DNA from: Escherichia coli
GTDB lineage: Bacteria > Pseudomonadota > Gammaproteobacteria > Enterobacterales > Enterobacteriaceae
Length of the DNA stretch: 64,000 nucleotides
Assembly: GCF_041248615.1 (NCBI RefSeq)
Contig: NZ_CP158426.1
Reading direction: 5' to 3' (one strand)
The notes under the pieces were generated by a model that was not told the DNA's origin, ran no database searches, and worked only from the letters and a program-made list of their open reading frames with translations. Of this stretch, positions 58,751 to 60,295 are shown in pieces; within the stretch, counting starts at the first letter, position 1; each line of letters starts with the position of its first letter. The position numbers and the translations under genes are program-made.

Positions 58751-59476
58751 GTGAAAAAGACTTTTATGCTTTTAATTTGCATGCTAATAAGCAGCCCTGT
58801 CTTTGCAACAAAACCGGACGCGCCGAATAAGCCGGAGATGAATATCTTCGAGCTCGGCATCAGACCCGATCGGGACAACGACTTTGCAGACGTGGCCAGA
58901 CAGACGATTTCCGCTTCGGTTGATCATGAAGCAGGTACACTGGCGATGTATGCCCTGCAACGCAGCGACAATTCAGGTCAGGCATTCATGTTCGAACTCT
59001 ATGAAAATGAGCGTGCTTATCGCAAACATCTCAATGCCGCCCCATACAAAGCATTCGCTGCTCGTGCAGCTGACATTATTGACAGGAAGAAGAAAATTAC
59101 CCTGGAGCCACAGTTTCTGGGCGACAAACACATCATACCGAATGAACGAACTATCAATAATCTGGTGATCGTCGAAGTAAAGCCTGAATTTCAGAGCGAA
59201 TTTAGAAACATCGTCCTTCCTGAAATGGTCGAGTCGCTCAAAGTAGAGAAAGGCGTGTTAGCCATGTATGCCGGTACAGATTCAGAGACTCCAAAACGCT
59301 GGTATTTCTATGAGATTTACGCCAGTGAGGAGGATTATCAACTGCACCGACAAACGCTGCACTTCCTGGATTACCTCAGGCAAACGGCGCATATGAGCGC
59401 CAGGAAGGACGCAATCCCGGTAAAACCGGTATTTCTTCGTAACAAAGGCGGAATCAAACAGGAGCCGCAACGTTGA
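58751..59476 (+). CDS. secreted protein with two tandem ABM (antibiotic biosynthesis monooxygenase-like) domains
   Basis: Sec-type signal peptide MKKTFMLLICMLISSPVFA; internal duplication visible (LAMYALQ...FMFELYENERAYRKH / LAMYAGT...YFYEIYASEEDYQLH). Confidence 0.6.
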   Translation: MKKTFMLLICMLISSPVFATKPDAPNKPEMNIFELGIRPDRDNDFADVARQTISASVDHEAGTLAMYALQRSDNSGQAFMFELYENERAYRKHLNAAPYKAFAARAADIIDRKKKITLEPQFLGDKHIIPNERTINNLVIVEVKPEFQSEFRNIVLPEMVESLKVEKGVLAMYAGTDSETPKRWYFYEIYASEEDYQLHRQTLHFLDYLRQTAHMSARKDAIPVKPVFLRNKGGIKQEPQR

Positions 59477-59491
59477 CCAGTAAGGATTAAC

Positions 59492-60295
59492 ATGAAAAGC
59501 GTACTTGCAGCAGCGGCTATGTCGCTTGTTATTTCTGATTTTGCCAATGCTGAGGAAACAAGAGGTAAAGCTATGATGAAAATAGAACCGTCAGCGATTT
59601 CGGAAGCTGATATTCGTTCCGTCTCACCGGCTCTCGCGCGCTTTGGTCGCGAAGCTATTACTGAAGATCTGTGGACACGCGACGCCCTCTCACCGAGGGA
59701 TCGTAGTGTGGTGACCGTCGCCATGCTGATTGCCCGCAACCAGCCTGCCGAGCTTAAGCACTATATTGACGTCGCTCTCGATAGCGGCGTGACGCCAGCG
59801 GAATTATCAGAAATCATTACCCATCTGGCGTTCTACTCAGGTTGGCCAAATGCAATGTCAGCCGTCAGCGTGACCAAAGCAGTATTTGAAACTCGTGGCG
59901 TCACGGCAGATGCACTTCCTGAAGCTTCTCCGGACCTGCTTCCTCTCAATCAGGAAGCAGAAAAGCAGCGTTCAGAGACAGTGGAAAAAAATGTTGGCCC
60001 AATATCTCCAGGCCTGGTTAAATTCACTGCTGATCCACTCTTCCTGGATCTCTGGCAAAGACCCGCGCTGAAACCCCGCGACAGAAGCCTGATTACGGTC
60101 AGCGCCTTAATCGCATCCGGACAGAGCGCGCAGATTGGCTATCACCTCAATAGAGCAATGGATAATGGACTTTCTGTTGAGGAAGCTGGTGAGATCGTTA
60201 CCCAGGCCGCCTTCTATGCTGGCTGGCCAAACGCATTTACCGCTGCTCCGGTTGTGGGAGAGGTGCTAAACAATCGATCATCGAGTAAAAGGTAA
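59492..60295 (+). CDS. secreted protein with two tandem carboxymuconolactone decarboxylase (CMD/AhpD-like) domains
   Basis: signal peptide MKSVLAAAAMSLVISDFANA; duplicated motif LAFYSGWPNA / AAFYAGWPNA. Confidence 0.65.
   Translation: MKSVLAAAAMSLVISDFANAEETRGKAMMKIEPSAISEADIRSVSPALARFGREAITEDLWTRDALSPRDRSVVTVAMLIARNQPAELKHYIDVALDSGVTPAELSEIITHLAFYSGWPNAMSAVSVTKAVFETRGVTADALPEASPDLLPLNQEAEKQRSETVEKNVGPISPGLVKFTADPLFLDLWQRPALKPRDRSLITVSALIASGQSAQIGYHLNRAMDNGLSVEEAGEIVTQAAFYAGWPNAFTAAPVVGEVLNNRSSSKR

Follow-up and report, generated by a model that had tools for sequence, protein, structure and literature searches.

Predicted export of a tandem ABM protein and a tandem CMD protein encoded side by side at the end of a partly decayed, LysR-linked operon in Escherichia coli

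Introduction

A stretch of 64,000 nucleotides from Escherichia coli (NCBI RefSeq assembly GCF_041248615.1, contig NZ_CP158426.1), hereafter called the window, carries two adjacent genes which raise the question whether proteins of the ABM and CMD fold families can act in the periplasm, and on what kind of compound. The genes, ORF1 and ORF2 and hereafter ABM2 and CMD2, each code for a putative signal sequence followed by two copies of one domain. The original prediction, made from the letters of the window, was that both proteins are exported, that each is internally duplicated, that such a periplasmic pair encoded side by side is unusual, and that it suggests redox chemistry of the cell envelope such as quinol or peroxide handling. 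The reading that we favour, with moderate confidence, is that ABM2 and CMD2 act, without cofactors, as the periplasmic arm of a LysR-linked operon directed against redox-active quinones or phenolics. The tandem architectures themselves were already known; what is new is the corrected start of ABM2, the recurrence of the predicted-exported module in other bacteria, and the decayed state of the E. coli copy.

Results

Domain architecture and fold

The two genes and their parts are as follows, with positions counted from the first letter of the window.

58751-59476, + strand: ABM2, a predicted-exported tandem ABM protein of 241 amino acids with a GTG start (open reading frame (ORF) list, Pfam, AlphaFold model, Foldseek)
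58751-58807, + strand: putative signal peptide of ABM2, codons 1-19 (N-terminal pattern)
58844-59062, + strand: ABM domain 1 of ABM2 (Pfam)
59171-59377, + strand: ABM domain 2 of ABM2 (Pfam)
59481-59486, + strand: Shine-Dalgarno sequence TAAGGA of CMD2, in the intergenic gap (read from the sequence)
59492-60295, + strand: CMD2, a predicted-exported tandem CMD protein ('dualCMD') of 267 amino acids with an ATG start (ORF list, Pfam, 4G9Q match)
59492-59551, + strand: putative signal peptide of CMD2, codons 1-20 (N-terminal pattern)
59651-59878, + strand: CMD domain 1 of CMD2 (Pfam)
60017-60256, + strand: CMD domain 2 of CMD2 (Pfam)

The genes are adjacent and in the same orientation, as had been stated, and are separated by 15 nt, where 16 bp had been given. 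The Pfam domain ABM (PF03992) was found twice in ABM2, at residues 32-104 (E 5e-11) and 141-209 (E 8e-12), and the domain CMD (PF02627) twice in CMD2, at residues 54-129 (E 7e-17) and 176-255 (E 3e-17). The two halves are 26 % identical in ABM2 (z = 19.6) and 43 % identical in CMD2 (z = 41), scores which none of 500 shuffled sequences reached in either case, and the internal duplication is thus confirmed for both proteins.

The AlphaFold model of ABM2, with a predicted local distance difference test (pLDDT) score of 92.9, has a disordered N-terminus followed by two beta-alpha-beta ferredoxin-like halves. Compared by Foldseek with the crystal structures 3F44 and 3MCS, it gave template modelling (TM) scores of 0.84-0.96 and root-mean-square deviations (rmsd) of 1.5-1.9 Å (3F44: 0.84/0.96, rmsd 1.5 Å). 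The model of CMD2 is all-helical, with a pLDDT of 74 (below 50 for residues 1-34), and matches the dualCMD structure 4G9Q (TM 0.74/0.82; E 2e-73 by sequence). Structure prediction is therefore in line with the pseudo-dimeric folds expected for the pair.

The polar residues that are invariant over 19 tandem ABM homologues, S56, E60, E82, Y84 and H93, all fall within the first half of ABM2. The second half keeps only W184, which is the sole conserved tryptophan, Y208 and G233, and H199 varies. The confinement of the invariant residues to the first half suggests a single conserved active site per chain. The only NCBIfam match of ABM2 was LsrG (NF007791), at 57.3 bits against an equivalog cutoff of 135, and identity with LsrG was rejected on this score. 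ABM2 could nevertheless be an isomerase resembling LsrG, a haem-degrading enzyme of the IsdG kind or a ferredoxin-like ligand-binding protein and not an oxygenase, as the ABM fold is chemically versatile, LsrG was the sole family match, and both LsrG and HmoB were in the Foldseek list. We consider this quite unlikely, given the low LsrG score and an operon that contains no lsr or haem-uptake genes. IsdG-type haem oxygenases are defined by Asn-Trp-His residues, and the five invariant residues of ABM2, compared with that triad without an alignment to the IsdG motif, do not resemble it; identity with an IsdG-type haem oxygenase was rejected on this comparison.

For CMD2 the best-scoring functional family was PcaC (TIGR02425), with 115.3 bits over two stretches, below the equivalog cutoff of 155.7 bits; both halves align to the PcaC core. 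In the multiple alignment the motifs R-D-R and F-Y-x-G-W-P are kept by both halves of the dualCMD proteins. It had been proposed to check whether the CxxH-like active-site positions of AhpD are conserved in either half: the 267 residues of CMD2 include no cysteine at all, and consequently no CxxC, CxxH or CxxCxxxH motif in either half, which excludes the AhpD-type CxxC mechanism. Thiol-based AhpD chemistry was accordingly rejected. It is barely credible that CMD2 should be an AhpD-like alkylhydroperoxidase or thiol-disulfide protein acting on envelope peroxides: the CMD family does include AhpD, and AhpD structures appear at low rank among the Foldseek matches (probability 0.96-0.99, TM about 0.4), but they align at an rmsd of 9-13 Å and the best family matches are of the PcaC type.

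Export signals and the start codon of ABM2

The N-terminus of ABM2 reads MKKTFMLLICMLISSPVFA|TKPD and that of CMD2 MKSVLAAAAMSLVISDFANA|EETR. A Sec signal peptide cleaved by signal peptidase I was taken to consist of a positive n-region, an h-region of 10-17 hydrophobic residues and small residues at positions -3 and -1, and both proteins have this pattern: MKK / TFMLLICMLISSPVF / VFA|T in ABM2 and MK / SVLAAAAMSLVIS / ANA|E in CMD2. A rule-based score combining hydropathy (the maximal Kyte-Doolittle mean over 8 residues), charge and the residues at -3 and -1 gave a hydropathy of 3.34 for ABM2 and 2.38 for CMD2; the two fimbrial proteins of the window, used as exported controls, had values of 2.98 and 3.48, and nine cytoplasmic neighbours all had values of at most 1.97. 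Twin-arginine translocation was rejected as a route because neither N-terminus contains RR. A lipoprotein was rejected because there is no lipobox: Cys10 of ABM2 follows L-L-I, orthologues have W, Y, G, F or S at this position, and CMD2 has no cysteine.

The start codon of ABM2 is annotated differently in RefSeq. The Prokaryotic Genome Annotation Pipeline (PGAP) places it at Met11 (58781), giving a protein of 231 amino acids from which the n-region and half of the h-region are removed, and protein databases hold versions of 241, 236 and 231 amino acids. The GTG codon is invariant in 15 Enterobacterales loci, the proteins of which have 37-100 % identity, whereas codon 11 is ATA, CTG or another non-ATG codon in several of them. 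Pantoea sp. S61 offers no start other than the GTG, and its deposited 231-amino-acid protein would need a non-canonical Ile codon. An AAGG core is found at a fixed distance before the GTG in the other Enterobacterales orthologues, as AAGGA in most, and E. coli has AAAGA instead:

58741-58745, + strand: weakened Shine-Dalgarno sequence of ABM2, AAAGA, found in three divergent E. coli alleles (start-region comparison)

The change from AAGGA to AAAGA may lower translation of ABM2 in E. coli. The conservation of the GTG across the 15 loci makes the GTG start, with the signal peptide included, the conserved reading, and the annotated start, which strips the signal peptide, will bias automated calls of localisation and function for the family.

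If ABM2 did start at Met11 and the hydrophobic N-termini remained uncleaved, the pair would be cytoplasmic, namely a YgiN-like quinol monooxygenase and a PcaC-like decarboxylase. The RefSeq start, the many database entries that begin at Met6 or Met11, the weak Shine-Dalgarno sequence before the GTG in E. coli and the homologues without an extension speak for such a location. It is unlikely all the same, in view of the conservation of GTG and AAGG and the non-ATG codons at position 11 described above. The start of CMD2, moreover, is unambiguous, with the strong Shine-Dalgarno sequence TAAGGA, and it includes the signal peptide. Finally, the 19-20 N-terminal residues keep the pattern of charge, hydrophobic stretch and AXA across bacterial classes while their sequence drifts.

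The extension is common among relatives. A survey of 85 cluster representatives of tandem ABM proteins, all spanning both halves, found a clear signal-peptide-like extension in 32 and a weaker one in 7, and 44 began directly at the first strand; roughly half of the family thus has a putative export signal. In a genome scan with a query built from six closer sequences, the extension was present in relatives from Enterobacterales, Neisseriaceae, Pasteurellaceae, Xanthomonadaceae and Veillonella and absent in those from Streptococcus, Ligilactobacillus and Coriobacteriaceae; all Gram-positive relatives in the scan lacked it. A signal peptide is present in most Enterobacterales relatives of CMD2 and in three alphaproteobacterial ones, two on Sinorhizobium meliloti pSymA and one in Salipiger. 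The signal peptides originally assigned to both proteins are thus upheld by their three regions, by scores near those of the fimbrial controls and by their retention in other genera and classes, and ABM2 and CMD2 are probably exported to the periplasm by the Sec route.

Literature searches returned nothing on a periplasmic or signal-peptide-bearing CMD protein, nothing relevant on YgiN and the periplasm, and nothing on the combination of ABM, CMD, LysR and quinone. For exported ABM proteins they returned only Saro_1420, found in a periplasmic fraction without a cleaved signal peptide, which is not informative here. Searches with the RefSeq accessions of the operon proteins gave no papers, and PDB codes used as terms gave only noise.

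Pairing and distribution across bacteria

CMD2 follows ABM2 directly in the window, to which one of the loci compared is identical (L001), and in 14 of 14 other Enterobacterales loci with an ABM2 identity of at least 52 %, from Enterobacter, Pantoea, Pectobacterium, Rahnella, Raoultella, Chimaeribacter, Serratia and Erwinia. CMD-family genes also abut ABM2 in Stenotrophomonas and Lysobacteraceae. The commonest companion of either gene codes for a Flavodoxin_2 protein (KefF/NQO-like), usually together with a LysR regulator; most of the ABM2 loci from Proteobacteria and Veillonella contain it, as do both of the Klebsiella CMD2 loci examined. This companion is assigned to KefF by NCBIfam, and its structure matches are NAD(P)H-FMN and quinone reductases.

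A related pair is present on S. meliloti pSymA (strain 2011, L061, positions 4458-5771 of that locus). There a protein with a signal peptide and one ABM domain, which has 36 % identity with the second half of ABM2 (E 6e-14), is encoded 22 nt upstream of the signal-peptide-bearing gene of 4G9Q. A divergent LysR gene and an aldo-keto reductase gene are nearby, and two further exported proteins, one GSDH-like and the other a cupin, are encoded downstream. The ORF of the 4G9Q gene begins MKRLIAPLMGVMMMTTSNAGA|QQ. The crystallised chain starts at an internal Met, which indicates that the construct lacked the native signal peptide.

In the Klebsiella oxytoca group (L065, 6383-8240) a gene for an exported Flavodoxin_2 protein directly precedes that for the dualCMD protein, and an exported cyclophilin-like protein is encoded next. 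A Bacteroidales metagenome-assembled genome (L059, 5872-7950) codes in a row for three exported proteins: a single ABM protein, a CMD-cupin fusion and a flavodoxin-like protein. This is the set of folds of the Enterobacterales loci in another phylum. A predicted-exported module of ABM and dualCMD proteins, with or without a flavodoxin-like protein, thus recurs across phyla, and this point is new.

The original prediction had called the tandem, exported pair unusual. This was overstated: tandem ABM proteins (3MCS, 3F44) and dualCMD proteins (4G9Q, 2Q0T) have already been crystallised, and members with a signal-like extension are common, as the survey above indicates.

The operon and its neighbourhood

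ABM2 and CMD2 are the last two genes of an operon which, in the RefSeq annotation, has hipBA on one side and a fimbrial operon on the other. The annotated order is a divergent LysR gene, followed by genes for a 103-amino-acid protein, DJ-1/PfpI, an aldo-keto reductase, an 'amidohydrolase', an NAD(P)H oxidoreductase, a second aldo-keto reductase, a 'putative quinol monooxygenase' (the RefSeq name of ABM2) and a 'carboxymuconolactone decarboxylase family protein'.

53132-54031, - strand: LysR-family regulator, divergent, presumed to control the operon; kept beside the cluster in many genera
54167-58635, + strand: upstream cytoplasmic operon genes as a block (ORFs, RefSeq annotation, family profiles)
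54167-54478, + strand: 103-amino-acid protein, first gene of the operon, no family match
54475-55179, + strand: DJ-1/PfpI, cytoplasmic
55253-56200, + strand: first aldo-keto reductase, cytoplasmic
56288-56890, + strand: amidohydrolase with an internal in-frame deletion, cytoplasmic
57041-57613, + strand: KefF-like Flavodoxin_2, cytoplasmic
57616-58635, + strand: second aldo-keto reductase, cytoplasmic

There are no pca genes (pcaB, pcaD, pcaGH) among the neighbours, which are instead LysR, DJ-1/PfpI, aldo-keto reductases and Flavodoxin_2. Together, the LysR regulator, the quinone-reductase-type flavoproteins, the aldo-keto reductases and DJ-1/PfpI suggest defence against quinones or phenolics, and the gene context favours quinone or quinol-related chemistry. 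Of the redox chemistry first proposed, handling of quinols therefore remains plausible, whereas AhpD-type handling of peroxides is excluded by the lack of cysteine in CMD2.

The 103-amino-acid protein had no Pfam or NCBIfam match, the best being YCII at E 0.34. It has the same position in Pantoea, Pectobacterium, Serratia and Rahnella (74-98 % identity); in Klebsiella a gene for 102 amino acids stands at this position, and the Xanthomonas dyei locus holds a copy with 66 % identity.

A scan for promoters and terminators gave no signal exceeding that of shuffled sequence, and Rfam gave no matches over 53900-61400. At 60395-60429, 100 nt past the stop codon of CMD2, there is a perfect 13-bp inverted repeat, CACAGTTATGAAC / GTTCATAACTGTG, with a 9-nt loop and no T-tract, which may act as a weak terminator or bind a protein. 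At 60741-60944 an ORF of 67 amino acids corresponds to the C-terminal helix-turn-helix piece of an AraC-type regulator, annotated as 'incomplete' in RefSeq; it adds to the signs of decay, here where the island ends.

The region is present in 505 of 5426 complete E. coli genomes (about 9 %), and the copy in the window is identical to those of E. coli chromosomes. Base composition does not set the island apart. The synonymous divergence between the E. coli operon (54167-60295) and the copies from Enterobacter, Rahnella and Pantoea (L004, L005, L007) is only 0.2-0.5, which is low by our expectation for these genera, and the genomic surroundings of the operon differ from genus to genus. The low divergence points to horizontal spread of the cluster, with the copy acquired by E. 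coli being partly decayed.

Decay and selection in E. coli

Other genera have a fuller version of the operon. Between the second aldo-keto reductase gene and ABM2, intact genes for a DUF1330-like protein and a second Flavodoxin_2 protein are found in Rahnella, Enterobacter sichuanensis (L004) and two Pantoea (L003, L009); in the Rahnella locus (L007) they occupy 4971-5981, with the Flavodoxin_2 gene at 5382-5981. Candidatus Pantoea deserta and Serratia inhibens also carry the DUF1330-like gene, and in S. inhibens the Flavodoxin_2 gene is a remnant only. The DUF1330-like protein and the second Flavodoxin_2 protein both have signal-peptide-like N-termini, and the latter resembles NAD(P)H-FMN oxidoreductases and KefF. 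In the window a remnant is left:

58648-58731, + strand: remnant of the Flavodoxin_2 gene, its last 27 codons (58648-58728) and the stop codon (tblastn, matching residues 173-199 of the Rahnella protein with 89 % identity)

The 27-codon remnant is all that is left of the gene in about 471 E. coli genomes. E. coli has thus lost the predicted-exported Flavodoxin_2 and DUF1330 proteins, and its module is incomplete. Decay is also seen in the 'amidohydrolase' (200 amino acids), from which residues 62-201 of the 349-amino-acid Rahnella/Pantoea orthologue have been removed in frame.

Comparison of E. coli with Enterobacter, Pantoea, Rahnella and Pectobacterium gave ratios of non-synonymous to synonymous substitution rates (dN/dS) of 0.20-0.27 for ABM2 and 0.08-0.10 for CMD2, similar to those of the neighbouring reductases. 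ABM2 and CMD2 are therefore real genes under purifying selection. The antisense ORFs on the - strand at 58687-58878 and 59371-59739, which lie inside genes under purifying selection, found no support and were rejected. Within E. coli, CMD2 has 14-23 synonymous and 4-8 non-synonymous differences, with a ratio of non-synonymous to synonymous polymorphism (pN/pS) of 0.10. ABM2 has 0-1 synonymous and 1-3 non-synonymous differences; it is so nearly invariant that it gives no selection signal either way. The step from 0-1 synonymous differences in ABM2 to 14-23 in the adjacent CMD2, seen among the E. coli alleles L067-L069, suggests that recombination had a breakpoint between them.

The two genes might, in E. 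coli, be functionless leftovers of a decaying island, with their frames intact and the pathway broken. The loss of the Flavodoxin_2 and DUF1330 genes, the shortened amidohydrolase, the mutated Shine-Dalgarno sequence of ABM2, the occurrence of the island in so few genomes, the mostly non-synonymous nature of the few differences in ABM2 and the truncated ABM2 variants in databases would all fit such a state. We regard it as doubtful, although it deserves serious weight: the E. coli alleles of CMD2 show clear purifying selection, 462 E. coli genomes have both frames undamaged, and elsewhere either gene is retained alone, CMD2 in Klebsiella and ABM2 in other genera.

Discussion

A periplasmic arm of the operon

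The localisation, the substrate class and the reactions in the reading of ABM2 and CMD2 as a periplasmic arm are predictions, drawn from the genes, their architecture and fold, the export signals, the pairing and the decay described above. Each protein is a fusion of two copies of a normally homo-oligomeric domain, ABM2 being a single-chain version of the ABM dimer and CMD2 a single-chain pair of all-helical CMD units, the homologous crystal structures of which assemble as a trimer. The ABM and CMD folds need neither an organic cofactor nor NAD(P)H, a property that suits transport in the unfolded state by Sec and work in the periplasm with only O2 and the substrate. ABM2 may carry out an O2-dependent oxygenation or isomerisation of a hydroquinone-like or anthrone-like compound, and CMD2, which is PcaC-like and cysteine-free, may carry out a cofactor-free decarboxylation or tautomerisation of a related product. 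Compound entering the cell would be dealt with by the cytoplasmic reductases, i.e. the KefF/NQO-like protein, the two aldo-keto reductases and DJ-1/PfpI. In the fuller ancestral operon the exported Flavodoxin_2 and DUF1330 proteins would have been encoded ahead of the pair.

Several observations weigh against this reading. The signal-peptide score used here is a rule-based one, and the hydrophobic region of CMD2 is alanine-rich and only moderately hydrophobic (2.38). Distant CMD2 relatives that are encoded beside an exported ABM2 (L033, L037; 43-44 % identity) appear to have no signal peptide. CMD2 occurs without ABM2 in Klebsiella, and ABM2 without CMD2 in Neisseria, Eikenella and Pasteurellaceae, showing that the two are not obligate partners. 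The G-to-A change in the Shine-Dalgarno sequence of ABM2 counts as a sign of decay, and in the decayed E. coli operon ABM2 may be poorly expressed or without function in this host.

A wider reading is possible and is offered tentatively, namely that ABM2 and CMD2 belong to a widespread periplasmic module, in which an ABM oxygenase and a dualCMD protein free of cysteine are joined by an exported reductase of the flavodoxin-like kind and sometimes by an exported DUF1330, cupin or cyclophilin-like protein, and which transforms redox-active plant or host phenolics and quinones without NAD(P)H. It draws on the occurrence of the same exported folds in Enterobacterales and Bacteroidales and of the exported ABM-dualCMD pair in Alphaproteobacteria. 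In the envelope such a module would correspond to the quinone cycle of MdaB and YgiN in the cytoplasm. If export is real, two folds mostly studied as cytoplasmic, those of the cofactor-free ABM oxygenases and of the CMD decarboxylases and peroxidases, are present in the periplasm, and the exported flavodoxin-like, ABM and dualCMD proteins are a recurring module in plant-associated and gut-associated Gram-negative bacteria. Within E. coli the module is of limited importance, as only a small share of genomes have the operon and it is visibly decaying.

Comparison with known systems

AhpD belongs to the same Pfam family and all-helical fold class as CMD2, but has the motif CxxCxxxH and matches it poorly in structure (TM about 0.4). 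PcaC, the 4-carboxymuconolactone decarboxylase of the beta-ketoadipate pathway, is like CMD2 in being free of cysteine and cofactor. Unlike CMD2, which is duplicated and predicted to be exported, PcaC stays in the cytoplasm, has a mass of about 13 kDa and assembles into hexamers (PMC5615479).

The two-ABM single chain and the fold of ABM2 are shared by 3MCS (Fusobacterium nucleatum FN1347) and 3F44 (Lactobacillus acidophilus), the former matching ABM2 by sequence at E 4e-25 over residues 28-236. Both are described as 'putative monooxygenases', are only 25-26 % identical to ABM2 and, unlike it, have no N-terminal signal peptide, the alignments starting from their residues 6-8.

Adams and Jia reportedly proposed in 2005 a quinone redox cycle between the E. 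coli quinol monooxygenase YgiN and the quinone reductase MdaB. As in the operon described here, an ABM-fold protein is there encoded together with an NAD(P)H quinone-reductase-type flavoprotein. YgiN, which was not among the PDB sequence matches of ABM2 at E <= 0.01, is a cytoplasmic single-domain homodimer, whereas ABM2 is fused, predicted to be exported and paired with a CMD protein.

The dualCMD class was surveyed in 2017 with about 1200 sequences, 4G9Q and 2Q0T being trimers and the function not known (PMC5615479); the survey does not mention export (PMC5615479). Both structures share the two-CMD single chain with CMD2. That of Paraburkholderia xenovorans (2Q0T) is only 18-20 % identical to it, and that from S. 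meliloti pSymA (4G9Q) 47 % in the multiple alignment and 49 % in the structural alignment. The native gene of 4G9Q resembles CMD2 further in coding for a signal peptide and in directly following the gene of an exported ABM protein.

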